This document shows, piece after piece, positions 2,112 through 55,856 of a stretch of 64,000 nt of DNA. The stretch spans positions 1,036 through 65,035 of the forward strand of contig JAHECN010000001.1 in the NCBI GenBank assembly GCA_024641735.1. The letters run 5' to 3'. The DNA is from Gemmatimonadota bacterium (GTDB lineage Bacteria > Gemmatimonadota > Gemmatimonadetes > Gemmatimonadales > GWC2-71-9). A program made the position numbers and the translations under genes. Under the pieces are notes generated by a model, which was not told the DNA's origin, searched no databases, and saw only the letters and a program-made list of their open reading frames with translations. The first letter of the stretch is position 1. Each line of letters opens with the position of its first letter.

Positions 2112-2224
2112 TGGGGATCCATGGGGCGGGACGCGGTCGGCTCCGAGGGAGCGTCAAGTAAACCCCTTCGCGTCAATCGGCCGTCAAACGAAACGAAAGC
2201 CGAGGATCCCGCGAGATCATCACG

Positions 2225-3316
2225 CTATCTGGAACCCCCCCCAACTGGACTCGTCCAGCGCCATGCGTTTGGCCGATTTCGGAACCACGACATCACCAAG
2301 AGCCGCTGATGGAGCCGTTCCGGGCTCACTCGACCCACTGCCTCCCGGGGTTTCGCCATCTCCTCGGCCACGACGGCCGCGAACGCTTCCCGCTCGATCG
2401 GGCTCACCGGGTCCGGATAGGTCGCGCGCACCTCCCCCCGGACGATGAGATAGGCCCGAGCGTCCCCCCGCGCACCGGGATCGCGATAGACGAAGGTCAG
2501 CGATTCCAGCGTGGCACGATTTCGGGCGACCGCCGCGAGGAGCCATTCGAGTGTTTCGAACTTGGCCCGCCAGTAGGCCGCCCGCTCAAAATCTCCCGCG
2601 TCCGCGCGAGTGGTCATCTCCTCCACGACCCGGCCGATGGGGTCAATGCTCCGCCCTTCGCAGAAGGCGGCGGCCATCTCCCCGCGGGCCCGGTAGCCTG
2701 ACTCAGAGACCAGGCCTGCGCAGGGCCCCAGGCAGGTGCCGAAGTCATAGCGCGGGCAGGCGGCACGGATCGGATCCGTGAACAGCTCCTGCTGCTCGGC
2801 GTAGTGCACCGGCATGTCCGCCCGACAGTCCCGAATGCCGAGGAGGTCGGTGAGCACCCGGGCTGCCTCGGTGACGCGACCACGCGAGGGAAATGGGCCA
2901 TAGACGCGTCCGGCGTGACGCTCCGGCGTGGCCGTCGCGAGGAGCCGTGGTGCGCGTTCATCCGTCACGACCAGAAACCCCGAGACGCGGTTGCGATTCA
3001 TGGCGTGATTGAACGGCGGGCGGAACTTGCGGATCAATTCGAGTTCGGTGAGCGCCGCCGCAAACTCACTCGGCGTGGGGACGATCTGGATGTCGTGTGC
3101 GGCGTGCAGGATCCGGGCGGCCTTGTCTTCGGGATACGTGGCACGGAAGTAGGAGAGCAATCGTGTCCGCAGCGCCTTCGCCTTCCCCACGTAGAGCACT
3201 CGGCCGTCTGCCCCGAGCATCCGGTAGGTCCCCGGCCGATCATCGGCGAGCCGGCGGACCCGAAAGCGGAGTGCTTCGAGGTCGGTGGCGGGGAGGGGGA
3301 GCGCGAGTGAACTCAC
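2225..3316 (-). CDS. UvrC N-terminal-half homolog (GIY-YIG nuclease + UVR-like region; Cho-like, lacks the C-terminal endonuclease/HhH half)
   Basis: 363 aa. GIY-YIG motifs are present (GTYRML..RVLYVGKAKALRTRLLSYF; ELELIRKFRPPFN). A UvrC-like Cys region (CPRYDFGTCLGPCAG) and a UVR-like helix (DFERAAYWRAKFETL) follow. The length covers only about the N-terminal half of a full UvrC. Confidence 0.8.
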   Translation of the reverse strand: MSSLALPLPATDLEALRFRVRRLADDRPGTYRMLGADGRVLYVGKAKALRTRLLSYFRATYPEDKAARILHAAHDIQIVPTPSEFAAALTELELIRKFRPPFNHAMNRNRVSGFLVVTDERAPRLLATATPERHAGRVYGPFPSRGRVTEAARVLTDLLGIRDCRADMPVHYAEQQELFTDPIRAACPRYDFGTCLGPCAGLVSESGYRARGEMAAAFCEGRSIDPIGRVVEEMTTRADAGDFERAAYWRAKFETLEWLLAAVARNRATLESLTFVYRDPGARGDARAYLIVRGEVRATYPDPVSPIEREAFAAVVAEEMAKPREAVGRVSPERLHQRLLVMSWFRNRPNAWRWTSPVGGGSR

Positions 3317-3334
3317 CTAGAGAAGATACTTGAA

Positions 3335-3421
3335 GGAGAGAGGAGAAAAGAGAGAGGAGAAAGCGTGACCTGGGCTGCGGCTCTCCTCTCTCATTTCTCT
3401 TCTCTCCTCTCTCCTCTCTCC
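3335..3421. repeat. Heptad-built hairpin H1: polypurine arm facing a polypyrimidine arm
   Basis: The left arm is GGAGAGA GGAGAAA AGAGAGA GGAGAAA G (3335-3363) and the loop is cgtgacctgggctgcgg. The right arm (3381-3421) reverse-complements to GGAGAGA GGAGAGA GGAGAGA AGAGAAA TGAGAGA GGAGAG. The outer 12 bp are perfectly complementary. The right arm touches the mutM stop (cta at 3421-3423). Confidence 0.7.
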
Positions 3422-4245
3422 TAGTTTTGGCACCTCCAACACATCACCGTCCCTCTTGCATCGATCTCGTGCGTCGCAACAAGGCGCGTGCCGCAGGCGC
3501 GGCAGGGCTCCCCCTCACGACCGTACACATGCAGTTCAAGCTGGAAGTTGCCTGGCGCTCCAGTCGAGGAGACGTAATCGCGAAACGTCGTCCCTTCGGC
3601 GGCAATGGCCGCGGTCAGAATGCGGACGATGTGGCCATGGAGCATGCGGAGCTGCTCGGGTGGGACCCGCGCAGCGGCCTTGGATGGATCGATGCCGGAC
3701 GAGAAGAGCGCTTCGGCCGCGTAGATGTTGCCGACGCCGACCACGACGCGCTGATCCATGATCACTTTCTTGATCGCTGCACGCGACCTGGAGACGCGAT
3801 CCGTGAAGACGTCCGCGGTGAACGCCGGGTCGAGCGGTTCCGGGCCAAGGCGTGACGCATAGGCCAGCCACTCGGCGTCGTCACACCAGCGCAGCGTGCC
3901 GATGCGGCGCACGTCGCGGTACACCAGAGTGGCGCCGTCATCGAGCGGACAGACGAGCACGGCGTAGTGATCTTCCTCCTCCGACATCGGGCGATCGTAG
4001 ACCAGCAGCGATCCCGTCATCCCCGGCTGCACAGCGAGCGTCTTGGTGTCGGTCTGGAGGAGGGCATGCTTGGCGCGGCGGGTGACGTCGCGAATGGTGC
4101 GCCTGGGAAGTGCGCGGAGCAATTGGCGGGAAGTGACACCATCGAGCACGTTGTCGTGGCGGAGCGCTGCCGAGAGAATCGTACGCCCCGTGAGGCGGGC
4201 GCGAAGTTGGCGGACGAGGGTTTCGACTTCGGGGAGTTCAGGCAT
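3421..4245 (-). CDS. mutM: Formamidopyrimidine-DNA glycosylase (Fpg/MutM)
   Basis: 274 aa. N-terminal MPELPEVE and a C-terminal zinc finger (CRACGTRLVATHEIDARGTVMCWRCQ), with family-typical length. Confidence 0.95.
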   Translation of the reverse strand: MPELPEVETLVRQLRARLTGRTILSAALRHDNVLDGVTSRQLLRALPRRTIRDVTRRAKHALLQTDTKTLAVQPGMTGSLLVYDRPMSEEEDHYAVLVCPLDDGATLVYRDVRRIGTLRWCDDAEWLAYASRLGPEPLDPAFTADVFTDRVSRSRAAIKKVIMDQRVVVGVGNIYAAEALFSSGIDPSKAAARVPPEQLRMLHGHIVRILTAAIAAEGTTFRDYVSSTGAPGNFQLELHVYGREGEPCRACGTRLVATHEIDARGTVMCWRCQN

Positions 4246-4246
4246 G

Positions 4247-4373
4247 GGAGTCGTTGGTCATGAGTCGCTAGTCGTGAGAGGTTCCCTGCAACACGAAGAT
4301 CGAGCAAGACGGCGTCTGCCGCGAGGAGCAACCCGACACCCTCTCACGACTCGCGACTAGCGACTCACGACTC
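4247..4373. repeat. Heptad-built hairpin H2 (GAGTCG type) between purD and mutM
   Basis: The left arm (4247-4281) is GGAGTCG TTGGTCA TGAGTCG CTAGTCG TGAGAGG. The right arm (4340-4373) is cctctcacgactcgcgactagcgactcacgactc, with a loop of about 58 nt. The purD stop (cta at 4357-4359) and its last 5 codons lie inside the right arm. The left arm starts 2 nt from the mutM start codon (4243-4245). Confidence 0.7.
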
Positions 4374-5637
4374 TTGTCGCTTCTCTCCACCCAATGTCTC
4401 GCCGAAACTGCTTCCCCTCGAACTGAATCGCCGCAGCGGTGTCGCGGCTCAGGGCCTGCGCTTCCGCGAACGTCGCGGCCACGGCAGTCACCGCGAGCAC
4501 TCGACCGCCATTGGTGATCAGGCGACCGTCCTTGTTCAGCGCCGTGCCCGCGTGGTAAATCGTAACTCCCTCGTCGAGTGTGGCGGGAAGCGTGATCAGG
4601 TCCCCTTTGCTGCTCGACGCAGGATAGCCGGCGCTGGCCAGCACGGTGGTGACGGCGGCTGCGTCAATGAGATCAATTTTTGGTAATGGTTCTCCCTTCG
4701 CTGCCGCATCCAGTAGTGCCGAGAGTCCCGAGCGTACCAACGGCAACACAACTTCGGTTTCTGGATCACCGAGACGACAGTTGAACTCCACCACGTTGGG
4801 TGTCCCATCCGGATGGAGCATGATGCCGGCATAGAGGACGCCTCGGAACGGTGCGCCGCGACGCTCCAGCTCACGCAATGTCGGCAGGAGTACGTCCTGC
4901 GTGATGCGTTCGAGTACTGCTGGCGTGGCAATCGCCACCGGGGTATAGGCACCCATACCGCCGGTGTTCGGACCCGTGTCACCCTCACCGATGCGCTTGT
5001 GATCCTGTGCCGCCGGCAGCAGTCGCACGTCACGACCATTGGTGATCGCGAGCACCGAGAGTTCTTCGCCCTCGAGGAACGCCTCGATCACCACCACGTC
5101 TCCCGCATGGCCGAGCTGATGGTCGCCCATCATCGCACGGAGTGCGTCCACCGCTTCGGCGCGCGTGGCGCAGACGACGGCGCCCTTGCCGGCTGCGAGG
5201 CCGGAGGCCTTCACCACAAGGGGTTCTGGATGCGTCGCCACATACGCGAGCGCCGCATCCAGGTCATCGAAGGTGCGACTCGCCGCCGTGGGAACTCCCG
5301 CAGCAACCATCACATCCTTCGAGAAGGCTTTCGATGATTCGATCTGTGCTGCGGCCGCCACCGGACCAAACACATGGCGTCCCTCGGCGCGGAGGCGATC
5401 GGCGAGCCCCATCGCCAGCGGGACCTCGGGGCCAACGATCACCAGATCGATGGCGTGCGCATCCGCGGCATCGGCCAAGCGGTCGATGTCGTCTGCGGCA
5501 ATGGAGAGATTGGTGGCGAAGGAGGCGGTCCCGGGATTCCCGGGTGCGACATAGAGCACGTGCGTTGGGTCGTCCGCGGCGAGCGCGGCGGCGAGCGCAT
5601 GTTCTCGCCCGCCACCACCAACAACCAGAAGCCTCAC
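4357..5637 (-). CDS. purD: Phosphoribosylamine-glycine ligase
   Basis: 426 aa. Starts (GTG) with RLLVVGGGGREHALA, has an ATP-grasp core and VVEFNCRLGDPE. Full-length PurD-like. Confidence 0.95.
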   Translation of the reverse strand: MRLLVVGGGGREHALAAALAADDPTHVLYVAPGNPGTASFATNLSIAADDIDRLADAADAHAIDLVIVGPEVPLAMGLADRLRAEGRHVFGPVAAAAQIESSKAFSKDVMVAAGVPTAASRTFDDLDAALAYVATHPEPLVVKASGLAAGKGAVVCATRAEAVDALRAMMGDHQLGHAGDVVVIEAFLEGEELSVLAITNGRDVRLLPAAQDHKRIGEGDTGPNTGGMGAYTPVAIATPAVLERITQDVLLPTLRELERRGAPFRGVLYAGIMLHPDGTPNVVEFNCRLGDPETEVVLPLVRSGLSALLDAAAKGEPLPKIDLIDAAAVTTVLASAGYPASSSKGDLITLPATLDEGVTIYHAGTALNKDGRLITNGGRVLAVTAVAATFAEAQALSRDTAAAIQFEGKQFRRDIGWREATRVVSR

Positions 5638-6659
5638 GCAGACCCCTTGGAGCGGGCTTCGTTGAATGCGTCCTTCGCGCTTGCCGCCGCGCGCTTGGCC
5701 GCATTCTTCAAATGCTCACCGACTTCCTTGATTTCCTGCTTGTAGTGGTCCTTCGCGTCACGCATGTCGTCACGCAACGGCCGATCCGCTTCGGGGCTGC
5801 CGCGTCGCACGTATTCGCCGCGCAAGATGCGGTCGTAGTCTCCCGCCTGCACCCAGCGTTGCACCTCGGCCGCGCGGACCACGTTCATCGGATGCGTCAA
5901 GGCGAGTGTCGCCAGAATCTTGTAGACGATGTCGAGTCCCTCATTGGACGAGGCGTACTCGTTGGCTTGCTGCATGAACGGTTCGAGATTGAGGTCGCCG
6001 GGCCGGATATTCGCCGTGTTGCCACCGCCGGCCATCTTCATGAAGAGGCGCATGGTCGCCTGCAAGTCCTGCGAGCCAAGGAGCGACGCGCGATCGGCCG
6101 AGAGTTCGGATTTCCGCGACCACTCGAGGAAGGCAAACTTCACCGGCAGCAGGATGATCGAGGCGAGCATCGGCAGCGCTCCAAGACTCACCATCACCAT
6201 GATCGCGGCGATGGTGCGGTAGAGCGAATGCCCGCTGATCACGTGACCCAGCTCGTGGGCGAGGAGGACGCGCTGCTCGTCCAGCTCCAACAGCTCGAGT
6301 GCCGACGAGTGAATCACGATGAAGGGATTGTCGATCCCGTACGCGCCGGCGTTGAAGATCGGTGTCTGGGTGACGTACAGCTCGGGAATGATCTCCCATC
6401 CAAACGTCGCGCAGTTCTCGACGTGCAAGGCCCAGAGGGTGGGGAACTGCGTCGGCCCGACGCGCACGGCGTTCCCCTGGAAGAGGAGCCGGATCCCCTG
6501 TTCGCCCCCGAGAATCCCAAGAATCTTCTTGATGACTTCGTCCACGCCTGGGACGGCGCGGAGCGACTGCAAGGCGGCCCGATCCGCTGGATGCTCCCAC
6601 GCGACGGCGGCGATGTCGGGGAGTGCGATGCGGGGGCGGGCGGCGGGGAGCGAGGTCAT
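5634..6659 (-). CDS. M48-family zinc metallopeptidase
   Basis: 341 aa with the HELGHVISGH (HExxH) motif followed by hydrophobic segments. Overlaps the purD start by 4 nt. Confidence 0.85.
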   Translation of the reverse strand: MTSLPAARPRIALPDIAAVAWEHPADRAALQSLRAVPGVDEVIKKILGILGGEQGIRLLFQGNAVRVGPTQFPTLWALHVENCATFGWEIIPELYVTQTPIFNAGAYGIDNPFIVIHSSALELLELDEQRVLLAHELGHVISGHSLYRTIAAIMVMVSLGALPMLASIILLPVKFAFLEWSRKSELSADRASLLGSQDLQATMRLFMKMAGGGNTANIRPGDLNLEPFMQQANEYASSNEGLDIVYKILATLALTHPMNVVRAAEVQRWVQAGDYDRILRGEYVRRGSPEADRPLRDDMRDAKDHYKQEIKEVGEHLKNAAKRAAASAKDAFNEARSKGSA

Positions 6660-6681
6660 CGGAGACTCGTGTGTTAAGGTT

Positions 6682-6706
6682 CCCCCGCCCTACGGATGGC
6701 GGGGGG
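6682..6706 (-). terminator. Candidate stem-loop downstream of the cystathionine-synthase-like gene
   Basis: CCCCCGCC (6682-6689) pairs with GGCGGGGG (6698-6705) around an 8-nt loop. It lies 22 nt past the stop at 6728. There is no clear U-tract. Confidence 0.35.
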
Positions 6707-6727
6707 TACCTGTTTCAGGGTGCATCG

Positions 6728-7897
6728 TCAGCGGCTGAGGGCCTGGTCCAAGTCTGCTTGGAGGTCGCGGACGTCCTCAATGCCGACCGAGAGACGGATC
6801 AGCGAGTCGGTCAGCCCCATCTCCTCGCGGAGTGCCTTGGGCACCGAGGCGTGCGTCATCGAGGCTGGATGCCCGATCAAACTCTCCACGCCCCCGAGCG
6901 ACTCCGCCAGCACGAAGATCTTGGTCGCCTCGGCTACCCGACGGGCCCGGTCCGCGTTTCCGAGCTCAATCGACAACATCCCACCAAATCCACTCATCTG
7001 GACCGCTGCCAGAGCGTGTTGCTCGTGGGAGGGCAGACCCGGATAGTAGACCCGCTCGACGTCAGCACGATCGTCTAGCCAGGACGCCAGCACGCCGGCA
7101 CTCTCGCAGTGCGCGCGCATGCGGAGTGGCAAGGTCTTGATCCCCCGAAGCGCGAGCCAGCAGTCGAAGGGCCCCGGAACACCGCCCGCCGCGTTCTGCA
7201 GAAAACCAATCTGCTCGGCAAGGTCCTCTCGCGTGGTGATCAACGCGCCACCGATCATGTCGGAGTGGCCGTTCAGGTACTTGGTGGTCGAATGCAGCAC
7301 TATGTCTGCCCCGAGCGCCAATGGGCGCTGCAACACGGGTGTCGCGAAGGTGTTGTCCACGACCAGCAAGAGCCCCAAAGCCTGTGCCAAGTCGCCGACC
7401 GCTCGGAGATCCGTGAGGAACATCATCGGGTTGGTGGGGGTCTCGCAGTAGAGCATCCGGGTCGTCGGGCGGAGCGCGGCCTCGACGGCACCGACGGTCC
7501 GCATGTCGACGAACGAAAACTCCACCCCGAAGCGTTCATAGACACGCTGCATCAGGCGGTGACTGCCGCCATAGATATTGTTGCCGATGATGACGTGATC
7601 GCCGCCCTTCAACAGCTTCAGGACCGTGTCCAGCGCCGCGAGTCCAGACCCGAACGCGAAGGCGTGTTCTCCCCCTTCCAGGGCGGCCAGTGCCCGCTCA
7701 AGTGCCTCCCGCGTGGGATTTGCGGTGCGGGCGTACTCGTAGCCGTTGTGTGGCGCACCGAGCCCGTCCTGGATGTAGGTCGAGGTCTGGTAGATCGGTG
7801 GCATCACGGCGCCCGCGACGGGGTCGTGGTGGTGTCCGGCGTGGACAGCCAGCGTGGCGAGGTGCTGTTCGGCGTCGGGAGGCGGAACGCGGGTCAT
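6728..7897 (-). CDS. PLP-dependent Cys/Met-metabolism enzyme (cystathionine gamma-synthase/lyase family)
   Basis: Carries the PLP-lysine motif STTKYLNGHSDMIGG and family-wide similarity. I prefer the ATG at 7897 (MTRVPPPDAEQHLATLAVHAG). The track ORF extends to 7942. Confidence 0.9.
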   Translation of the reverse strand: MTRVPPPDAEQHLATLAVHAGHHHDPVAGAVMPPIYQTSTYIQDGLGAPHNGYEYARTANPTREALERALAALEGGEHAFAFGSGLAALDTVLKLLKGGDHVIIGNNIYGGSHRLMQRVYERFGVEFSFVDMRTVGAVEAALRPTTRMLYCETPTNPMMFLTDLRAVGDLAQALGLLLVVDNTFATPVLQRPLALGADIVLHSTTKYLNGHSDMIGGALITTREDLAEQIGFLQNAAGGVPGPFDCWLALRGIKTLPLRMRAHCESAGVLASWLDDRADVERVYYPGLPSHEQHALAAVQMSGFGGMLSIELGNADRARRVAEATKIFVLAESLGGVESLIGHPASMTHASVPKALREEMGLTDSLIRLSVGIEDVRDLQADLDQALSR

Positions 7898-7993
7898 CGG
7901 TCTACCGGGCAAGAGGAGGCCGAAGGTTATGTGGCGTCTCAACTTGGGGCAAGCGTAATTGTGGATCGGGAGGCCGGAGCGCTAATTTTCGGC

Positions 7994-9058
7994 ATGCCCA
8001 CTCTCGAGCATTCAGCGTCCCATCCTGTGCCCCGCATTCTGGTCGTCGATGACGACCCGATGGTGCGCGATGTGCTGACCCGCGTGCTGAAGGTGCAGGG
8101 CTATGCGGTCGAACAGGTCGGAGGCGTCGATGAGGCGCTGGACCTCTGCTATCGGGATGGAGAAGTTGACCTGGTGATCTCGGACATCCACATGCCGGGA
8201 CGCGATGGGGTGGCGTTGCTCGCGGAACTGCGCATGCGCTACCCAGACACCGCCGTCTTGATGCTCACGGGGGACGACGACGTTGGGCTGGCCGTGGAGT
8301 GCCTCAAAAAGGGTGCGATGGATTACCTCGCCAAGCCGGTGCAGATCCAAGAGGTCCGGGCCCGAGTCGAGAAGGCGATCGAGGAACAGCAACAGCGGAT
8401 CGAATTGCGGCAGCTGCGCGACGGCTACCAAGCCGAGCTGGAAGGACGCGTCCTGCAACTGTCGCAGCGCAACAAGGAAATGTTCCTCGCGCAGGTGCAG
8501 ATGGCGGTCCGGATGCTGGAAGCGAAGGATGTCTACACCCGAGGGCACTCGGCACGTGTGGCAGAATACGCGGTCTTGACCGGTCGCCAACTCGGTCTCG
8601 GTCGCGCGGTGCTTGACGATCTTCGTTTGGGCGGGGACCTGCATGACATTGGCAAGATCGGCACGCGCGACGCCGTGCTCAACAAGCCGGGACGGCTGAC
8701 GGATGAAGAGTTCACCGAGATGAAGCGGCACGTGACCGATGGGGAGGAAATGCTCGGCGTGCTTCGTGCCGACCATCCCGAGGTGTTGCACATCGTGCGC
8801 TGGCACCATGAACGGATTGATGGATCCGGATTTCCCGACGGCCTCATTGGTGCGCAGATTCCGCTTTCTGCCCGGATCGTTGGCGTGGTGGACGCGTTCG
8901 ATGCCATGACGTCCACCCGAGCGTATCGCGTCGAGCAATCCTTGGAATATGCCTTTGGCGAGCTGGAACGTGGCAAGGGACGCCAGTTTGACGCCGACGT
9001 CGTCGACGCCTTTGTGCTCGCCTTTCCGAATCGCTCTGCTGCTACCCTTCGCCACTGA
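7994..9058 (+). CDS. Response regulator with HD-GYP output domain (RpfG-like, putative c-di-GMP phosphodiesterase)
   Basis: ATG at 7994 is in frame with track ORF 7109-9058, whose upstream part is Arg/Gly-rich antisense-type sequence. REC motifs are ILVVDDDP and LVISDIHMPGRDG. A coiled linker precedes HD (LHDIGKI) and HHERIDGSGFPDGL. Confidence 0.9.
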   Translation: MPTLEHSASHPVPRILVVDDDPMVRDVLTRVLKVQGYAVEQVGGVDEALDLCYRDGEVDLVISDIHMPGRDGVALLAELRMRYPDTAVLMLTGDDDVGLAVECLKKGAMDYLAKPVQIQEVRARVEKAIEEQQQRIELRQLRDGYQAELEGRVLQLSQRNKEMFLAQVQMAVRMLEAKDVYTRGHSARVAEYAVLTGRQLGLGRAVLDDLRLGGDLHDIGKIGTRDAVLNKPGRLTDEEFTEMKRHVTDGEEMLGVLRADHPEVLHIVRWHHERIDGSGFPDGLIGAQIPLSARIVGVVDAFDAMTSTRAYRVEQSLEYAFGELERGKGRQFDADVVDAFVLAFPNRSAATLRH

Positions 9059-13428: not shown

Positions 13429-13994
13429 TGCCGACGCTGGTCCTTGCCTCTGCCTCGCCACGGCGTCGGCAGTTGCTCGAGATGCTGCACCTGCCGATTC
13501 TCGTCATGCCGGCAGACGTGCAGGAAATTCCGCTTCCGCGAGAAGCGCCGGCCGCCTACTCGCGCCGATTGGCGCGTGACAAGGCTGGTGCGGTGCCCGG
13601 ACAACTCATTCTGGGCGCGGATACCATCGTGGTCCTCGATGGCGAAATCCTCGAAAAGCCTGCGGACGTTGAACACGCCGTCGCGATGCTGCTGCGACTG
13701 CAGGGGCGCAGTCACACCGTGATTACCTCCATCTGTCTGATCGCCAATGGTCTCGCACTCGAAGCCGCGGATGAAACGACGGTCACCTTTCGGCCAGCGA
13801 CGGAGGAGTATCTCCGCGCGTATGTCGCCACCGGCGAACCGATGGACAAGGCCGGATCCTATGGCATCCAGGGGTGGGGTGCGGCGCTGGTCGAACGGAT
13901 CGAGGGCGATTTCTTCAGCGTGATGGGATTGCCCGTGCGGCTGGTATTGGAGTTGTTGGAGGAGGCGGGGTATGGATACAGGTTCGAGTCGTGA
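13425..13994 (+). CDS. maf: Maf-family nucleoside triphosphate pyrophosphatase
   Basis: The [18 protein letters not shown] start overlaps the dtd stop (ATGA). [10 protein letters not shown] motif present. The last codons, TTC GAG TCG TGA, lie inside hairpin H3. Confidence 0.9.
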
Positions 13995-14067
13995 GTCGCG
14001 AGTCGTGAGAGGAGCGACGGGGGGTGCCAAGCCTCTCTCACGACCAACGACTCACGACTCAAGACTC
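13986..14067. repeat. Heptad-built hairpin H3 (GAGTCG type) between convergent maf and trpE
   Basis: The left arm (13986-14012) is GAGTCGT GAGTCGC GAGTCGT GAGAGG, with a 19-nt loop. The right arm (14032-14067) is cctctctcacgaccaacgactcacgactcaagactc. Both flanking genes stop inside the arms. Confidence 0.75.
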
Positions 14068-15542
14068 ATTGCAAGCGCCAGCAACACCGCCCCCGCCTTC
14101 GCGACCGTTTCCTCAAACTCCGCCTGCGGTTGCGAGTCCGCCACGATCCCGGCGCCGGCCTGGACGTAGGCGGTGCCGCCGGTGAAGACCACCGACCGAA
14201 TCGCAATCGCGGTATCGAGCGTGCGAGCACCGTACCCGACGTAGCCCACCGCGCCGGCGTACGGACCGCGCCGGGTCGGCTCCAACGTGTCAATGATCTG
14301 CATCGCCCGGACCTTGGGCGCGCCGCTGACGGTGCCCGCCGGGAAGGTCGCTGCGAGGGCATCGAGGGCGTCGAGCCCATTGCGCAGCATGCCCCGGACT
14401 TCGCTGACCAGGTGCATCACGCGAGAGTATCGCTCGGTGACCATCTGCTGCACGACGCGCACCGTGCCATACTCGGCCACGCGTCCAACATCGTTGCGGC
14501 CGAGATCGACCAGCATCAAATGCTCGGCACGTTCCTTCGCGTCGGCGTGCATCTCCGCCTCAAGCGCGAGATCGTGCGCGTGATCGCGCCCTCGCGGTCG
14601 GGTCCCCGCGATCGGACGGACCGTGACCTCGTCTTGTTCGACGCGCACCAGTACTTCGGGTGATGCGCCGGCGATCTGCAGCGGCCCGAGTGCCAGATAG
14701 AAGCAATAGGGTGACGGGTTCATCGCGCGGAGCCAGCGGTACGTCAGGAACGGGTCAGGTGCCGGCGTGACATCCATGCGCCGAGAAAGGACGATTTGGA
14801 AAGCATCGCCGGCCGCCACGTACTCCTTGCAGCGCGCCACGTCGCGTCGGTAGTCGTCGTCCGCGTAGGGTGAGGACGCGGCGGCGGGTGCGACCTCTCT
14901 GGGAGTGAGCGGAGCGAGTTGCCCCGGCACCCCGAGGCGGTCGATCCACTCGCCCATGCGCGTTTCCGCCGCGCTGATGCGGCGGTGCAGTGTTGCGTCG
15001 TCCAGCGCTGGGGAGACGGCGACGTTGGCGATCACGATGGCACGGTGATACAAGTTGTCGAGCACGAGGAGGGTGTCCACGACCATCGCGACGGCATCCG
15101 GAAGGTCACGATCGTCGGGCGGTGCGTCCGGAAGCGATTCAATGCCACGCACGACGTCATAGCCCCAGAAGCCGACCGCACCACCAGTGAACCGCGGCAG
15201 TCCCTCGATCGGCATGGCGCGATCTTGCCGCAGGAGATCACCCAGATGGGCGAGTGGCGGAAGTGCGTTCGAGTGGATCTCCCAGGTGCCGTCTGGCCGG
15301 CGCTGTTCCGCGCGGTTGCCGCGATACCGGAACACGGATTCCGGCTCGGTGGCGAGGAAGGAATAGCGCGCCCACCGTTCACCACCCTCGAGGGATTCGA
15401 GCAGGAAGCCGTATTCGCCAACGTGCACCTTCGCGAATGCGGAGACTGGCGTATCGCCGTCGAGGACCACGGCGCGGGTCAGGGGCACCCGAGTGTATCC
15501 CGCCTCCGCGGCCATCCGGCACTGCGCGAAGATGTCGCTCAT
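14052..15542 (-). CDS. trpE: Anthranilate synthase component I
   Basis: 496 aa of full-length chorismate-binding enzyme similarity (…LESLEGGERWARYSF…, …GAVGYVGY…). Ends ...ATG AGT CTT GAG TCG TGA inside H3. Confidence 0.95.
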   Translation of the reverse strand: MSDIFAQCRMAAEAGYTRVPLTRAVVLDGDTPVSAFAKVHVGEYGFLLESLEGGERWARYSFLATEPESVFRYRGNRAEQRRPDGTWEIHSNALPPLAHLGDLLRQDRAMPIEGLPRFTGGAVGFWGYDVVRGIESLPDAPPDDRDLPDAVAMVVDTLLVLDNLYHRAIVIANVAVSPALDDATLHRRISAAETRMGEWIDRLGVPGQLAPLTPREVAPAAASSPYADDDYRRDVARCKEYVAAGDAFQIVLSRRMDVTPAPDPFLTYRWLRAMNPSPYCFYLALGPLQIAGASPEVLVRVEQDEVTVRPIAGTRPRGRDHAHDLALEAEMHADAKERAEHLMLVDLGRNDVGRVAEYGTVRVVQQMVTERYSRVMHLVSEVRGMLRNGLDALDALAATFPAGTVSGAPKVRAMQIIDTLEPTRRGPYAGAVGYVGYGARTLDTAIAIRSVVFTGGTAYVQAGAGIVADSQPQAEFEETVAKAGAVLLALAMSLES

Positions 15543-26428: not shown

Positions 26429-26470
26429 AGAGAGGCCGGGATCCGCATCGACGCGGGTCCCGGCCTCTCT
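26429..26470. terminator. Bidirectional stem-loop between convergent genes
   Basis: agagaggccgggatccgc / atcgac / gcgggtcccggcctctct forms an 18-bp stem with one T:C mismatch (no G.U option on either strand) around a 6-nt loop. It lies 28 nt after the stop at 26401 and 18 nt before the stop at 26488. Confidence 0.6.
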
Positions 26471-29846: not shown

Positions 29847-29871
29847 TTCCGGCGAAAGGTCCGGCGTGGCG

Positions 29872-29894
29872 GGCGCACCTTCTGAAGGTGCGCC
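29872..29894 (-). terminator. Intercistronic stem-loop between clpP and clpX (possible attenuator or partial terminator)
   Basis: ggcgcacctt / ctg / aaggtgcgcc forms a perfect 10-bp stem, 16 nt after the clpP stop. No U-tract. Confidence 0.35.
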
Positions 29895-29909
29895 GCGCGA
29901 CCGGACTGG

Positions 29910-35303: not shown

Positions 35304-35355
35304 GCACCGGGCCCCATGGGTGGCCGAATGGCAGGCGGTGTGTCGAGCGAGGAGA

Positions 35356-35437
35356 TGCGAGCGCCGGGAGTCGAACCCGGACGGGTTTCCCCACAGGATC
35401 CTAAGTCCTGCGCGTCTGCCAGTTCCGCCACGCTCGC
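35356..35437 (-). tRNA. tRNA-Leu: tRNA-Leu (anticodon TAG), class II with a long variable arm; CCA not encoded
   Basis: The reverse complement is GCGAGCGTGGCGGAACTGGCAGACGCGCAGGACTTAGGATCCTGTGGGGAAACCCGTCCGGGTTCGACTCCCGGCGCTCGCA. The acceptor stem GCGAGCG/CGCTCGC pairs. The anticodon stem is CAGGA/TCCTG with loop CTTAGGA, and the T-loop is GGTTCGACTCC. Confidence 0.9.
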
Positions 35438-35537
35438 TGATTCGGGGGAAGCTAACCGCCGAGCTATCCCCTTTCCACGTCCGGCCGATCTGTGGCTATC
35501 TTACAGCCCAGTTCACTTCAGCTCTCCGAGGATCCGC

Positions 35538-35885
35538 GTGACGCAAGGTTGGCAATCCCGGGCCATTGTGGCCCTCTGTGGCAGCATCATCCTGACCGCC
35601 TGTGGCGACAGCCGCCTCGACAAGCTGTCGGCCAATATCTCCAAGGACAGCGTCGCGGTCATCATGAAGACCGATTCGCCCCATTCGGCGGCCTCGTACC
35701 TGACCAACGGCCAGCTCTGGGAGATCCAGTTCTACACCCGCAAGGAAGTCGCCCTCACCGATTCGGTGGATTGGCGCGACATGAGCCCGGTGGTCTTCTC
35801 GGATGGGCATGTGGCGGGCTGGGGCTGGAACTACTGGGAGAAGGAAGCCGCGACGCTGCAGATCCCGATGCCGCCGAAGAAGTAG
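35538..35885 (+). CDS. Hypothetical small lipoprotein
   Basis: GTG at 35538 gives (M)TQGWQSRAIVALCGSIILTAC with lipobox LTAC. The upstream part of track ORF 35316-35885 overlaps the tRNA and is rejected. Confidence 0.6.
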   Translation: MTQGWQSRAIVALCGSIILTACGDSRLDKLSANISKDSVAVIMKTDSPHSAASYLTNGQLWEIQFYTRKEVALTDSVDWRDMSPVVFSDGHVAGWGWNYWEKEAATLQIPMPPKK

Positions 35886-35887
35886 AC

Positions 35888-35995
35888 GGAGAACAGAGAA
35901 CAGAGAACCGAAAAAACCGAGGGGTGAAGGGTCAGGGGTTGTTCCCCCTCACTCCTCACCCCTCACTCGTGTCCGTTCTCTGTTCTCTGTTCTCC
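35888..35995. repeat. Heptad-built nested hairpin H4 between convergent lipoprotein and htrA genes
   Basis: The outer arms, GGAGAAC AGAGAAC AGAGAAC (35888-35908) and gttctctgttctctgttctcc (35975-35995), are perfect 21-nt reverse complements. The inner arms are cGAGGGGT GAAGGGT CAGGGG (35918-35938) and ccccctcactcctcacccctcactcg (35944-35969), around the loop ttgtt. The arms start 2 nt from each flanking stop codon. Confidence 0.85.
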
Positions 35996-35997
35996 AG

Positions 35998-37566
<1,569 letters not shown>

Positions 37567-37646
37567 CGCTGAATTCCAAGGTAGATGGCCTGCAGGCCGG
37601 GAATCACGTATGAACCCGGCCGATCATGTACTGCATAATACTCGGA

Positions 37647-37673
37647 TGCGCGACCGAAAGATTCGGTCGCGCA
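37647..37673 (-). terminator. Candidate dnaK terminator stem-loop
   Basis: tgcgcgaccgaa / aga / ttcggtcgcgca forms a 12-bp perfect stem, 16 nt after the dnaK stop. On the minus strand it is followed by TCCGAGTATTATG. Confidence 0.55.
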
Positions 37674-37689
37674 CCCGGTGTGTCGCCAA

Positions 37690-39600: not shown

Positions 39601-39711
39601 GTCCGCTCCTGGTCCGTCGGCGTCAAAATGGCGCCCAGGCGAATCCCGGGCGCTGTTACGCCTTCAGAAGGGCAATGGTCGTACCGGGATTGACTGCCGG
39701 AATGGCAGGGC

Positions 39712-39795
39712 AAGGAGAGAGGAGAAACGAGAAAGGAGAGAGGAGGGAGCCAGAAGTCAGCGGCTCTTCTCTCCTTTCTCCTCTCTCTTCCCTCC
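39712..39795. repeat. Heptad-built hairpin H5 (polypurine/polypyrimidine type)
   Basis: The left arm is AAGGAGA GAGGAGA AACGAGA AAGGAGA GAGGAGG GAG (39712-39749), with loop ccagaagtcagcgg. The right arm is ctcttctctcctttctcctctctcttccctcc (39764-39795). Complementarity is imperfect purine:pyrimidine pairing. The element ends 1 nt before the stop of the BNR-repeat gene (39797). Confidence 0.65.
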
Positions 39796-44346: not shown

Positions 44347-44423
44347 GGGGGCGACTCCGTGTTGTGAGGATCCGGTAATGATGCTGCAGAGATAGGGATC
44401 GCGAAAGCCTCGCGACTCCCTGC

Positions 44424-45728
44424 TCACGACTCTCGACTCATCTTCATTCCCTGCCAGCTCCCATACGTCCAACTCCGCCACAACCATTCCATCGGTCCGA
44501 AGCGGAAGCGCGCCAGCCACCACTGGGAGAAGATCGTCTGCACCACCAGGATCGCGAGGGCGAGCGGGGCCAGCCAGGTCGCCCCGACGCGGCCCGCGAG
44601 CCCGAACCCGATGCCGTAGAAGATCGTGATGCCGATCAGGGTCTGCATCAGGTAATTCGTGAGCGCCATCCGTCCCGTGGGCGCCAGCCACACGAGGACA
44701 CGCTGCCACGCAGCGCGCTGCCACAGCAGCACAAAGCCGGCGGTGTAGGCGAGTGCGAGGGGGATGACGCCGACGGCGTACAGCGCGCTCTCAAGGACGC
44801 CGTGCCATGTACCTGAGTAGTAGGCGTCCTGATTCGACACCGCGGCGAGTGCGAGCGACGCCGGGAGTCCGAGGGCGAGTCCCCACCCGAGTGTGCGGCG
44901 AAGCAGCGGCAGGTGGGGTTCGATCTGTTCCCACGGGCGGTGACGGCCAATCACCATGCCGAGGAGGAACATCGCCAACACCTTGAAGGGACGGCCCGTG
45001 AAGGTCAGGTCAGCAAATCGCCACCAGATGCCACCAAAATTGATCTGGAAGAATTCCAACCAACCGCCGTTGCCGAGATGATCGTACATGAAGGTGGGTG
45101 TGTTCCCGGTATAACCGAGGAGCTCAGCCACCCCCGTGCCGATGATCCAGAACGGCGCGGCAAGCGTCACGACGGGGCTGAGCAGCAGCGGCAAGTAGAA
45201 GACGACCGGCAGGAACGTCAGGAGAACGATCCAGCGCAGGAGCCGGGCGTCATCGAGTCCTCGCATCCGGAACATGATCAGGCCCATCACGGCGTAGAAG
45301 AAGAGGATGTCACCAGTCCAGAAGAGTGCCAGGTGGACACCCCCAATCACCATGAGGATTCGGAGCCGACGACGATAGAGACGCAGCGCGAGCGCCTCGT
45401 CCGTTCGCCGCATCAACTGTAGCGCGAATCCCAATCCGAAGAGGAGCGAGAAGATCGAATAGAACTTGCCGTCTACCAGCGCGTGGTAGAGGAAGGCTGC
45501 CGTCTCGTCGGTGGCGAGTCGCCATGCCGGGGTGAGCTCGGCCGTGCCGGGGTAGTCCCAGAACGCGAACGCCACCGAGAGATTGCCGAGGCAGACGCCG
45601 AAGAGCGCAAAACCCCGGAGCGCGTCGATCAGTGTGGCGCGGGCCTCGGGGCGGGTCGGCTGTGGTTGGAGCGGTGTGTGGCCCGTGGAAGGCGGGGAAA
45701 CCGCTTCGCGGGGGAGCGCTTCAGACAT
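44424..45728 (-). CDS. DUF418/YeiB-like polytopic membrane protein
   Basis: IDALRGFALFGVCLGN near the N-terminus and multiple hydrophobic helices. I prefer ATG 45728 (MSEALPRE…). Ends …CGA GAG TCG TGA. Confidence 0.75.
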   Translation of the reverse strand: MSEALPREAVSPPSTGHTPLQPQPTRPEARATLIDALRGFALFGVCLGNLSVAFAFWDYPGTAELTPAWRLATDETAAFLYHALVDGKFYSIFSLLFGLGFALQLMRRTDEALALRLYRRRLRILMVIGGVHLALFWTGDILFFYAVMGLIMFRMRGLDDARLLRWIVLLTFLPVVFYLPLLLSPVVTLAAPFWIIGTGVAELLGYTGNTPTFMYDHLGNGGWLEFFQINFGGIWWRFADLTFTGRPFKVLAMFLLGMVIGRHRPWEQIEPHLPLLRRTLGWGLALGLPASLALAAVSNQDAYYSGTWHGVLESALYAVGVIPLALAYTAGFVLLWQRAAWQRVLVWLAPTGRMALTNYLMQTLIGITIFYGIGFGLAGRVGATWLAPLALAILVVQTIFSQWWLARFRFGPMEWLWRSWTYGSWQGMKMSRES

Positions 45729-47597: not shown

Positions 47598-47604
47598 AGT
47601 AGGC

Positions 47605-47669
47605 GCGAGTCGCGAGTCGCGAGAGTGAGGGAAACCTCTCACGACTATCGACTCATGACTCACGACTCA
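47605..47669. repeat. Heptad-built hairpin H6 (GAGTCG type) between deoC and the ALDH gene
   Basis: The left arm is GCGAGTC GCGAGTC GCGAGAG TGAGGG (47605-47631), with loop aaa. The right arm is cctctcacgactatcgactcatgactcacgactca (47635-47669). Complementarity is imperfect. It starts 7 nt after the deoC stop. Confidence 0.7.
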
Positions 47670-47705
47670 CAGCACCACATTCACCATTCCACCAGGCTCC
47701 AAACC

Positions 47706-50078
47706 ATGACCTCTGTCCGCGACGCATTCGATTCCATGGCCTGGAGCCCGGCTCCAGAGTCCACGTCAGTGGCCACGGAATGGCTCGACCGCACGGACCG
47801 TCGCTTCGGCCAGTTCATCAACGGCGCATGGACGGCCCCAGCGGATACGTTCGCAGTCCTGAATCCTGCGACGGCGGAGGAACTCGCATACGTCTCGCAG
47901 GCGGATGAGGGCACCGTGGACGCCGCGGTTGCCGCCGCGCGGGCGGCGCTGCCGGGATGGCAAGCGCTGGGTGGGCACGGGCGGGCACGGTGGCTCTATG
48001 CGATTGCACGTGGCCTGCAGCGCCACTCGCGCCTCTTCGCCGTCATTGAGTCGCTCGACAACGGCAAGCCGATTCGGGAGTCGCGCGACATCGACATCCC
48101 GCTGGTGGCACGACACTTCTCGCATCATGCCGGGTGGGCGCAGCTCCTCGAGACAGAGTTCCCGGGGATGCAGGGCGTTGGGGTGGTGGGGCAAGTCATC
48201 CCGTGGAACTTCCCGCTGCTGATGCTCTCCTGGAAGATTGCGCCGGCACTCGCCGCCGGGAATACTGTCGTCTTGAAGCCTGCCGAGTTCACGCCGCTCA
48301 CGGCGCTCTGCTTCGCCTCGATGCTGGAAGAACTCGGCTTTCCGAAGGGCGTGGTCAACATCGTGACGGGCGATGGCCGAACGGGCGCCGCACTCGTGGG
48401 CCACCCCGACGTCAACAAGATCGCCTTCACGGGTTCCACGGATGTCGGGCGTGCAATTCGTGGCGCGACGGCAGGGAGCGGCAAGAAGCTCTCCCTCGAG
48501 CTGGGTGGGAAGTCGCCCTTCATGGTCTTCGACGACGCGGATCTCGATTCGGTGGTGGAGGGCGTGGTCGACGCGATCTGGTTCAACCAGGGACAGGTCT
48601 GCTGTGCCGGTTCGCGGATTCTGGTTGCCGAGAGCATCGCGGAGCGCCTGATCGCGAAGCTGCGTGATCGGATGGAGCGTCTTCGGGTGGGATCACCACT
48701 CGACAAATCGGTGGATATCGGCGCGATCGTCGCGAAGGTGCAACTCGACCGGATCACCGAAATGGTGGCACTCGGCCAAGAGGAAGGTTCCACCTGTTGG
48801 CAGCCGTCCTGGAGCGTGCCGACCGAAGGCTTCTTCTACCCACCAACACTCTTCACCGGCGTGCAGCCGGCCGCCACGATCGCGCAGGAGGAGATCTTCG
48901 GGCCGGTCGTCGTGTTGTTGACGTTCCGGACGCACGATGAAGCGGTCGAGATCGCCAACAACAGTCGCTATGGACTCGCGGCGAGTGTGTGGAGCGAGAA
49001 CCTGAACCTCGCGCTCGACATCGCGCCGCGATTGAAGGCCGGCACCGTCTGGGTCAACAGCACCAATCTCTTCGATGCCGCGAGTGGCTTCGGCGGGTAT
49101 CGGGAAAGCGGCTACGGCCGGGAAGGTGGTCGCGAGGGGATGTACGAGTATCTCGCGTCGACGCAGGCGAAGGGCGCCGAACGCACCACGTGGGAGGCCC
49201 CTGCGGCAGACGCGGGACGCGGCGATCAACCCGCGCTTCCTCCCGTTGATCGGACCCCGAAGCTGTACATCGGTGGCAAGCAGGCGCGGCCCGATTCCGG
49301 CTACGCCATTCCGGTCGTGGGCGCGTCGGGGAAGGTGGTCGGCGAGGTGGGTCGGGGCAATCGGAAGGACATCCGGAACGCCGTCGAGGCGGCCCATGCG
49401 GCGCAGTCCAAGTGGGCGAACGCGACGGCGCACAATCGTTCCCAGGTGCTCTACTTCCTTGGCGAGAATCTGGCGGCGCGGCGAGAGGAGTTCGCGTCCC
49501 GGTTGAAGACACTCACCGGAACCGATGGCGCCGCCGAAGTCGAGGCGTCGGTGCGACGCTGCTTCACCTGGGCGGCGTGGGCCGACAAGTACGATGGGGC
49601 AGTGCATCACACCCCACTGCGGAACGTGACGCTCGCAATGCCGGAAGCGATCGGCGTGATCGGCGTGCGCTGCCCCGACGAGGCACCGTTGCTTGGCCTG
49701 CTGTCCTGCATCCTTCCGGCGATCGCCATGGGGAATGCTGTGGTTGCGATCCCATCACCGGTCGCTCCGTTGTTGGCGACCGATTTGTATCAGGTGTTGG
49801 ATACATCTGATGTCCCAGGTGGCGTGGTGAACTTTGTGACCGGGCTCCCTGGGGAATTGCTGGCGGCCTTGGCCGGACACGACGATGTGGACGCGTGCTG
49901 GTGCTTCGGCACTCACGCCGAGGCCACGGAGGTCGAGCGACTCTCCACTGGCAATCTCAAACGCACCTGGGCGGAGTGGACGGTTCGCGACTGGGGAAGT
50001 GTGGCGGGCGGGGAAGGGACCGAGTTCCTGCGGCACGCGACGCAGGTGAAGAATATTTGGGTGCCGTACGGGGCCTAG
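47706..50078 (+). CDS. Aldehyde dehydrogenase fused to a second, truncated ALDH-like domain
   Basis: I prefer ATG 47706 (MTSVRDAF…). Domain 1 has ELGGKSP and FNQGQVCCAGSR (catalytic Glu and Cys). The C-terminal about 300 aa again resemble an ALDH NAD-binding half (PKLYIGGK…KWANATAHNRSQVLY…), but I could not find the Glu or Cys motifs there. Confidence 0.88.
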   Translation: MTSVRDAFDSMAWSPAPESTSVATEWLDRTDRRFGQFINGAWTAPADTFAVLNPATAEELAYVSQADEGTVDAAVAAARAALPGWQALGGHGRARWLYAIARGLQRHSRLFAVIESLDNGKPIRESRDIDIPLVARHFSHHAGWAQLLETEFPGMQGVGVVGQVIPWNFPLLMLSWKIAPALAAGNTVVLKPAEFTPLTALCFASMLEELGFPKGVVNIVTGDGRTGAALVGHPDVNKIAFTGSTDVGRAIRGATAGSGKKLSLELGGKSPFMVFDDADLDSVVEGVVDAIWFNQGQVCCAGSRILVAESIAERLIAKLRDRMERLRVGSPLDKSVDIGAIVAKVQLDRITEMVALGQEEGSTCWQPSWSVPTEGFFYPPTLFTGVQPAATIAQEEIFGPVVVLLTFRTHDEAVEIANNSRYGLAASVWSENLNLALDIAPRLKAGTVWVNSTNLFDAASGFGGYRESGYGREGGREGMYEYLASTQAKGAERTTWEAPAADAGRGDQPALPPVDRTPKLYIGGKQARPDSGYAIPVVGASGKVVGEVGRGNRKDIRNAVEAAHAAQSKWANATAHNRSQVLYFLGENLAARREEFASRLKTLTGTDGAAEVEASVRRCFTWAAWADKYDGAVHHTPLRNVTLAMPEAIGVIGVRCPDEAPLLGLLSCILPAIAMGNAVVAIPSPVAPLLATDLYQVLDTSDVPGGVVNFVTGLPGELLAALAGHDDVDACWCFGTHAEATEVERLSTGNLKRTWAEWTVRDWGSVAGGEGTEFLRHATQVKNIWVPYGA

Positions 50079-50115
50079 AAGAGAAAAGAGAGAAGAGAAA
50101 AGAGAGAAGAGAGGG
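50078..50115. repeat. One-armed polypurine heptad tandem repeat between convergent ALDH and ppx genes
   Basis: AAGAGAA AAGAGAG AAGAGAA AAGAGAG AAGAGAG GGG begins at the last base of the TAG stop (50076-50078). No complementary pyrimidine arm occurs before the ppx stop (50140). Confidence 0.7.
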
Positions 50116-55791: not shown

Positions 55792-55838
55792 CGTGGGGGG
55801 GAGAGTACCTTCGCTCTCCCACCCCTCCGGTCACGGCT

Positions 55839-55856
55839 TTGTAACAAACGTGTAAC
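55839..55856 (-). promoter_or_regulatory. Pho-box-like direct repeat in the pstS-pstC spacer
   Basis: Plus strand reads TTGTAAC aaac GTGTAAC (11-nt period). Minus strand reads GTTACAC gttt GTTACAA. It shares the GT(T/G)AC-N6-GT(T/G)AC core with the site at 58139-58178. Confidence 0.35.

Follow-up and report, generated by a model that had tools for sequence, protein, structure and literature searches.

The GGGAATC repeat of Xanthomonas is the closest described system to the hairpins that we analyze here, which lie in a 64,000-nucleotide stretch of a Gemmatimonadota bacterium genome (contig JAHECN010000001.1; the whole stretch is called the window below) and for which the element at 35888-35995, behind htrA, is our focal case. 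In Xanthomonas, tandem 7-nt units occur in a genome of ~65% GC, mostly in intergenic positions and rarely between divergent genes (Rehm et al. 2015, PMC4692102). The G-rich strand is the sense strand and lies no more than 50 bp from a stop codon or overlaps it, each genome carries 70-75 convergent inverted pairs capable of forming stem-loops, and 83% of the copies hold their position between species while length and sequence vary (PMC4692102). No function was established for the repeat, which was interpreted as a G-quadruplex (G4) element with a counterpart in Nostoc, GGGGA[C/T]T (PMC4692102). More generally, no class of long simple sequence repeats (SSRs) is commoner in many bacteria than the heptanucleotides, for which slippage of the polymerase is a suggested source (Mrazek 2007, via PMC4679880).

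The elements of the window share with the Xanthomonas repeat a place next to stop codons, a G- or purine-rich sense strand, convergent inverted pairs, and a position that is kept while the sequence varies. They differ from it in that Xanthomonas has one dominant unit, whereas at least five occur per genome here, and in that most units lack G-runs, double and triple hairpins are nested, stop codons are embedded in the units, and the host belongs to another phylum. As most units have no G-runs, G4 formation cannot be the common denominator, and the hairpin and its polarity are. Similarly, the long heptanucleotide SSRs, the short tandemly repeated repetitive (STRR) sequences of cyanobacteria and the TAACTGA repeat of Beggiatoaceae resemble our elements in being over-represented at period 7, intergenic and lineage-specific, with an origin by slippage proposed for them; the arrays described here also consist of at least three head-to-tail 7-nt copies, are in excess at period 7 and are mainly non-coding. 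Those repeats are mainly one-sided direct arrays, with TAACTGA located upstream of start codons, whereas ours are stop-anchored inverted pairs that form a hairpin of 20-50 bp.

Repetitive extragenic palindromes (REPs) and bacterial interspersed mosaic elements (BIMEs) are found at operon ends and within operons, not in divergent promoter regions, and form genome-specific sequence families with roles in 3′ mRNA stabilization and weak termination. REPs are 20-40 nt long and follow one consensus, while REP doublets forming hairpins (REPINs) have conserved spacers and a cognate REP-associated tyrosine transposase (RAYT). The heptad elements are likewise dispersed extragenic palindromes with 3′-end and operon placement and genome-specific families, and the roles that we propose for them are REP roles. 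They depart from REPs in their internal 7-nt period and in arms that change by whole units, and from REPINs in having no conserved spacer. Bidirectional intrinsic terminators offer a further parallel, as they also occupy convergent gaps, have a 5′-purine/3′-pyrimidine polarity on both strands and a GC-rich central hairpin, and the focal element even has a U6 tract. Unlike them, the heptad elements have far longer stems that start at or in the stop codon, mostly lack a U-tract and in many cases lie inside operons. The stable post-stop hairpin of an intrinsic terminator is present, the U-tract only on the - strand of the focal element, and a location at the ends of transcription units is not the rule.

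The sequence-only reading from which this work started did not recognize the element class. In view of the heptanucleotide long SSRs (PMC4679880), the cyanobacterial STRR sequences and, above all, Xanthomonas GGGAATC, we consider it a known but unexplained repeat class and not a categorically new element; what this clade adds to the known class is the nesting of hairpins, the presence of several unit families per genome, and the joint turnover of both arms. The same reading was right to set the elements apart from CRISPR, since contiguous 7-mers form inverted arms around a single loop and there is no layout of spaced constant repeats. An Rfam search of the elements gave no family above threshold: only the tRNA-Leu passed, and the elements gave sub-threshold matches to eukaryotic miRNA precursors (25-42 bits against thresholds of 47-137), which appeared at a permissive setting and which we discarded as generic look-alikes of long hairpins. 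Our literature search found nothing on such elements in Gemmatimonas or Gemmatimonadetes, and neither heptamers nor Gemmatimonadota figure in a survey of short tandem repeats across the tree of life.

Nested heptad hairpins in the window

The focal element fills the complete gap between two convergent stop codons, and its parts are as follows.

35888-35995, unstranded: nested hairpin between the stop codons of a small conserved gene and htrA
35888-35908 and 35975-35995: outer arms of the AGAGAAC unit, 21/21 complementary
35920-35940 and 35945-35968: inner arms of the GAGGGGT unit (GAGGGGT GAAGGGT CAGGGGT, and CCCCTCA-type heptads)

The 5′ outer arm reads GGAGAAC AGAGAAC AGAGAAC and the 3′ outer arm GTTCTCT GTTCTCT GTTCTCC, so that the architecture of inverted arms built from 7-nt units, with perfect 21-nt reverse complements outside, is as first described. 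Predicted RNA folding reaches -76.5 kcal/mol on the + strand (z-score -9.2) and -85.5 kcal/mol on the - strand (z-score -11.7). Between the outer and inner arms, an A6 run at 35911-35916 becomes U6 on the - strand, the strand of htrA, 2 nt past the inner hairpin. The earlier claim that U-tracts are missing therefore fails at the focal locus itself, where the inner hairpin followed by U6 has the sequence of a canonical intrinsic terminator for htrA. Orthologues of the focal element are present in four loci of relatives (L001, L002, L012 and L013), and in these the A6/U6 tract is weak or absent.

The right-hand neighbor, htrA, ends with its stop codon at 35998-36000, and the left-hand neighbor is a small conserved open reading frame (ORF) with a TAG stop at 35883-35885. 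Its product has no Pfam match, is 54-62% identical in relatives and always ends in PPKK. A tRNA-Leu gene (anticodon TAG) at 35356-35437 on the - strand lies inside the long ORF 35316-35885 (+), and the true start of the small gene is probably near 35492. Flanking genes here and below were assigned by Pfam and tRNA scans.

All other loci that had been listed exist, five as hairpins and two as half-elements, one of which is one-sided and the other a degenerate remnant.

3334-3422, unstranded: AGGAGAG/GAGAAAA hairpin after fpg; on the - strand it begins within the fpg TAG stop (3421-3423), and its end is 18 nt short of the next ORF start
4248-4373, unstranded: GAGTCGT/GAGTCGC hairpin, loop of 58 nt, in the gap that separates purD from fpg (both - strand); its 5′ arm contains the purD stop (4357-4359), and its 3′ arm leaves 3 nt to the fpg ATG
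13986-14068, unstranded: GAGTCGT hairpin between convergent maf (+) and trpE (-), with both stops inside the arms
39713-39795, unstranded: AGGAGAG hairpin beginning 1 nt past the stop of a BNR/sortilin-like gene (- strand), 113 nt upstream of dnaK
47604-47670, unstranded: GAGTCGC hairpin 6 nt past the TGA stop of a DeoC-family gene (+), with ~37 nt between it and the likely ATG of a gene for aldehyde dehydrogenase
50077-50113, + strand: one-sided purine array AGAAGAG/AAAAGAG of period 7/14 that starts within the aldehyde dehydrogenase TAG stop; sequence and folding give neither a complementary arm nor a predicted hairpin
44395-44441, - strand: degenerate GAGTCGN remnant with a short residual stem; it overlaps a DUF418 gene at its TGA stop (44424-44426)

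Inverted pairs thus make up 6 of the 8 loci, and in relatives, too, the majority of loci are of this kind. The folding check gave -35 to -85.5 kcal/mol for the six hairpins, with z-scores of -4 to -12; the five non-focal ones range from -35 to -68 kcal/mol (z about -4 to -7), and with relatives included the range extends to -133 kcal/mol. Copies of the unit per arm number 2.9-6 in the window and reach 12 in relatives, as determined with Tandem Repeats Finder (TRF) and our own scan, and loops of 7-60 nt are unrelated among copies.

A shared consensus had been denied to these elements, in contrast to REP-type repeats. We found that the four GAGTCGY loci share the arrangement [GAGTCGY]n-GAGAGG-loop-CCTCTC-[RCGACTC]n with unrelated loops, that the AGGAGAG hairpins at 3334-3422 and 39713-39795 have a 16-nt arm end in common, TTTCTCCTCTCTCCTT, and that the distribution is REP-like, so this distinction is not supported. 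There is no single consensus; instead, families of 2-4 loci per 64 kb have common arms, with at least five unit families in the 64-kb window and at least five in ~42 kb of the L013/L028 genome. The same unit is shared by 22.5% of locus pairs within a genome and by 8.4% between genomes, against a random expectation of ~2%, which is a rough estimate.

In some units, palindromes of a methyltransferase or restriction type recur every 7 nt (GANTC in GAGTCGT, GATC in GATGATC and GGTNACC in GTGACC), which may be a coincidence. They were seen at the following positions.

Window 4248-4373 and 13986-14068: arrays with palindrome-bearing units
L028 9962-9998, 10822-10857 and 16001-16096: arrays with palindrome-bearing units in a relative

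The excess is specific to period 7. The window contains 12 period-7 arrays, compared with a mean of 0.35 and a maximum of 2 over 20 dinucleotide shuffles, while periods 8-12 gave 0-1 arrays in the same scan. Close relatives have 28 period-7 arrays in 95.7 kb and distant Gemmatimonadota 2 in 103 kb, and none was found in 70 kb of five control loci from phyla other than Gemmatimonadota. Heptad hairpins are a statistically strong feature of the whole Gemmatimonadales clade.

Position, polarity and turnover of the arms

Positional rules were derived from ~190 kb with gene calls. Almost every array (45/46) is intergenic or at the 3′ end of a gene. Among gaps of at least 40 nt, 9/14 convergent, 15/48 tandem and 0/19 divergent ones are occupied (Fisher p = 5e-4), with no array in 2.8 kb of divergent gaps, so that the more 3′ ends border a gap, the more often it is occupied. 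The median distance from stop codon to array edge is -3 nt, that is, inside the stop, and 32 of 36 distances fall within -40 to +6 nt, which extends the reported abutment of stop codons from the window to its relatives. The distance from array to next start codon is variable (median, 60 nt), indicating that the elements are anchored on stops and not on starts.

The arm richer in G and purines is the 5′ arm in 24/26 hairpins, on both strands (p = 1e-5), as had been proposed, and in one-sided arrays the purines prevail on the sense strand. Stop codons in at least two frames occur in 33/52 readings of 5′ arms and in 5/52 of 3′ arms. T-free units begin exactly at the stop codon, while T-containing units hold stops in all three frames, so arrays of the latter kind could replace the last codons of a gene. 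In PurD, the C-terminal tail is coded by heptad arrays that differ from genome to genome.

Window 4357-4380: PurD tail in a GAGTCGT array
L028 9962-9991: PurD tail in a GATGATC array
L030 9962-10001: PurD tail in a GAGAAGG array

Array turnover therefore rewrites the last residues of this protein and shifts its stop codon.

Homology searches with HtrA, Fpg and a PilB-like ATPase place the window in the Gemmatimonadales, with its closest public relatives at 72-88% protein identity. Comparison of orthologous gaps, which the sequence-only reading had proposed as a test, showed that the unit changes jointly in both arms at the htrA and maf-trpE junctions. Here, the consensus units of the two arms were set side by side, since a formal count of covariation in aligned orthologues had to be given up: the register of repeated arms renders their alignment arbitrary. 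At the 3′ junction of htrA, the unit is AACAGAG in the window, AACAGCG in L002 and L012, and AAGCGAG in L013 and L001. The 3′-arm consensus is the exact complement of the 5′-arm consensus in the window, L012 and L013, while the short 3′ arm of L002 yields a variant consensus. At the maf-trpE junction, all four genomes examined have a hairpin of the AGTCGT family, with arms GAGTCGT/ACGACTC in the window and L036 and TAGTCGT/ACGACTA in L035 and L037. The hairpins of L035 (5750-5822) and L037 (4942-5012) also have a common inner stem, CCCGAACGAAGTGAGGGACCTGCGTG...CACGCAGATCCCTCGCGTTGCTCGGG, which has no heptad period.

Arms and loops differ in conservation. In L026, whose Fpg is 88% identical to that of the window, the arms of the purD-fpg hairpin agree with those of the window at 42/45 positions and the loop is near-random, with 52% identity at 4-fold degenerate sites; by this sequence comparison, the arms are conserved beyond the neutral level. 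At the junction downstream of fpg in the same two genomes, AGGAGAG in the window corresponds to ACGGAGA in L026, and the BNR/sortilin-dnaK junction has hairpins with other units in L002 and L001 (GTGAAAC and GTGACCA). The two arms of one element can differ in their number of units (~4 and 11, or 8 and 5) and are homogenized separately, which looks like the signature of slippage. Contigs of relatives end inside heptad arrays in L001 (11636), L026 (1251) and L031 (8609), and Ns lie inside one at 11629-11630 of L013, showing that heptad repeats break short-read metagenome assemblies.

Unit families may also be nested or shared among unrelated places. In a convergent gap of L036 (6663-6795), a one-sided GAGTCGT array is followed by pairing GTGAACG and GGGGTGA arms, and the inner GGGGTGA hairpin is identical to the focal inner hairpin at 45/48 positions, loop included, with the two loci being non-orthologous. 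Viral contigs that are unrelated and have a lower GC also contain a 22-mer of the focal inner hairpin, which makes a widespread family of low-complexity units as good an explanation of the 45/48 identity as a mobile element. One viral contig of 58% GC (L038, IMGVR_UViG_3300035698_009815) carries eight one-sided GGAGTAA/GGGGTGA arrays at 1916-8116, all on the coding strand. Each begins at or in a stop codon, several extend so far that only a few nt separate them from the following ATG, and the unit itself amounts to a stop codon plus a Shine-Dalgarno-like sequence. The rule of stop-anchored heptads thus appears to be broader than the Gemmatimonadales clade.

Candidate functions and rival explanations

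From the anatomy, statistics, position, polarity, in-place conservation and unit turnover documented above, the best reading of these elements is that they are clade-specific extragenic palindromes in which each arm is a short heptanucleotide microsatellite, the paired and inverted form of the heptameric long SSRs. Because their distribution matches that of REP/BIME elements, we read them as REP-like 3′-end hairpins, built and remodeled by 7-nt slippage with concerted evolution and probably acting as terminators or mRNA-end structures, an explanation to which we give about even confidence. Slippage, template switching and any function at the RNA level are proposed here from sequence. Units would be gained and lost by 7-nt replication slippage in each arm, with complementarity upheld by selection on the stem or by template-switch correction of the palindrome, and with units homogenized among the loci of a genome. 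Arrays would grow until halted by the coding sequence at the flanking stop codon, which would explain why they abut stop codons.

In the transcript, a very stable hairpin would then stand immediately behind the stop codon. Between convergent genes, its most likely role would be that of a bidirectional terminator or a barrier to 3′ exonucleases, and, if the A-tract/U-tract polarity of bidirectional terminators is taken as a model, the pyrimidine-rich 3′ arm may substitute for the U-tract by forming a weak RNA:DNA hybrid. The weakness of such a hybrid follows from established hybrid thermodynamics. Many elements lie inside operons, so not all of them can be efficient terminators; there, read-through is needed and an intercistronic stabilizer or processing stem would be more likely, with the stop codon brought close to the following start codon at the base of the stem, where translational coupling would be possible. 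Other 3′ gaps of the window contain plain GC-rich hairpins with no heptad period or U-tract (26429-26470, 6690-6720, 29870-29895, 37640-37675 and 55800-55840), and classical hairpin-plus-U sites are close to chance level (15, compared with 10.2 +/- 2.8), none of them coinciding with a heptad element in the window scan. These observations suggest that heptad hairpins fill the niche of a 3′-end stem. The plain hairpin at 26429-26470, between convergent genes, has 21-nt arms and a loop of zero. Two motif-based comparisons were dropped: the 5′ GTAG motif of REPs occurs only where a gene end of the form AAG TAG provides it, and GGA motifs of the CsrA type are absent from most units.

Several points weigh against the REP-like explanation. 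Many elements lie within obvious operons, among them ubiD-ubiA-ubiX and purD-fpg, and stop 2-19 nt short of the start codon that follows, which leaves no room for a promoter, so efficient termination would be harmful there. The purD-fpg hairpin was not found in L028 and L030, where the genes abut or overlap, and is a lineage-specific gain. In the 14 tandem-gap elements, sense and antisense strands fold equally well, with the sense strand more stable in 6 and the antisense in 8 and with 40 and 38 G.U pairs, so selection at the transcript level is not demonstrated by this comparison. In addition, template switching alone could keep the arms complementary without any function, and the proposed hairpin roles leave period 7 unexplained.

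The negative outcome of the strand comparison is what keeps a DNA-level, non-functional origin a serious rival, to which we assign a smaller though substantial probability. The elements would then be selfish or neutral DNA, either a by-product of heptanucleotide slippage in this lineage or small mobile palindromes that are copied from locus to locus and resemble REPINs or MITEs (miniature inverted-repeat transposable elements), with hairpins under no selection that persist only at the least harmful sites, just behind stop codons. Equal folding of sense and antisense strands speaks for it, and it would account for the gain of a hairpin at the purD-fpg operon junction, for the fast replacement of AGGAGAG by ACGGAGA after the fpg stop at 88% protein identity, for identical units with the same irregularities at non-orthologous loci within and between genomes, for the one-sided arrays and decaying remnants, and for contigs of relatives that break in arrays, as expected of dispersed repeats. 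It is harder to reconcile with junctions that remain occupied though 4-fold sites are near saturation, with arms that are 93% conserved beside near-random loops, with the strict 5′-purine polarity, or with an occupancy proportional to 3′ ends and absent from 2.8 kb of divergent gaps. Moreover, the loops are unrelated among copies, unlike those of REPINs and MITEs, and no transposase was seen in the 64 kb of genome examined, in which no dedicated RAYT search was made. The strict 7-nt period, which hairpin function alone does not explain, would find an account in a trans-acting factor that would bind one molecule per unit and make genome-specific units a regulatory code. We regard this as unlikely. 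The candidates would be a cold-shock-domain (OB-fold) protein or the ribosome, through Shine-Dalgarno/anti-Shine-Dalgarno mimicry; cold-shock-domain proteins bind pyrimidine-rich heptamers and melt terminator hairpins. A restricted unit repertoire does recur within a genome, ~40% of 5′-arm units hold GGAG, GAGG or AGGA with partners resembling the 16S 3′ tail, and the TAAGGAG-type arrays of the viral contig span the distance from stop codon to next start codon. CspB is also known to bind heptamer repeats at one protein per heptamer (literature summarized in PMC4679880). Yet one genome has at least five unrelated units, many of them (GAGTCGT, AGCGAAC, GTGACCC, GATGATC) neither Shine-Dalgarno-like nor T-rich, and no candidate factor was identified. 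We rejected Shine-Dalgarno mimicry as a general account, since it fits only the ~40% of unit families. The preference for heptamers in many unrelated phyla (PMC4679880, PMC4692102) points instead to a general mutational cause.

The G4 or other non-B DNA structure proposed for the heptamers of Xanthomonas and Nostoc is, in our view, highly improbable for this clade. Runs of G3-4 do occur in the focal inner arms (GAGGGGT GAAGGGT CAGGGGT) and in the GAGAAGG(G) arrays of L030, and Xanthomonas repeat oligonucleotides form G4 in vitro (PMC4692102). However, most units (AGGAGAG, AGAGAAC, GAGTCGT, AGCGAGA, GTGAAAC, GATGATC) have no G-runs and obey the same rules of position and polarity, and any G4 would face competition from hairpin pairing to the C-rich arm. 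The four or more runs of G3+ that a G4 requires are not the rule; G3+ is limited to the GAGGGGT inner arms, with three runs, and to the GAGAAGGG arrays.

We also considered a bolder reading, in which the hairpins would constitute a U-tract-independent, register-flexible 3′-end system with genome-specific heptad dialects, and which we hold to be rather improbable. The 5′-purine/3′-pyrimidine polarity would take the place of the U-tract, the heptad arms would allow the stem to pair anew in another register as long as the terminating ribosome covers the first units, and the dialects would be kept uniform by active copying or by co-evolution with a heptad-reading factor. Overall, our results support the interpretation of the sequence-only reading in part.

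A separate observation concerns the region next to the 39713-39795 hairpin, where a leader of ~110 nt upstream of dnaK is common to four genomes, with the order CTGCCATTCCGGCAGTCAATCCCGGTACG...GGGATTCGCCTGGGCGCCA...CAGGAGCGGA-ATG.

Window 39601-39712: dnaK leader
L001 7860-7975: dnaK leader
L002 7855-7968: dnaK leader
L013 7865-7975: dnaK leader

It has two predicted hairpins and no Rfam match, and it could be a heat-shock control element.

Implications for bacterial heptamers

To our knowledge, the excess of heptanucleotides in bacteria has been on record since 1990 and 2007 with no accepted cause or function, and the only detailed study that we know of, in Xanthomonas, explained heptamers as G-quadruplexes. 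The Gemmatimonadales clade is a natural experiment in this respect, as it combines many unit families per genome with junctions that are kept despite near-saturated synonymous sites and with joint changes of both arms. This makes it possible to test what sets the period at 7, by what means inverted microsatellites keep their complementarity, and whether high-GC bacteria without U-tract terminators employ such stems at the 3′ ends of their mRNAs. A practical consequence is that these repeats fragment metagenome assemblies and can displace stop codons in gene calls. If the U-tract-independent system were real, it would give one functional explanation for the heptamers of Xanthomonas, cyanobacteria and some phages.

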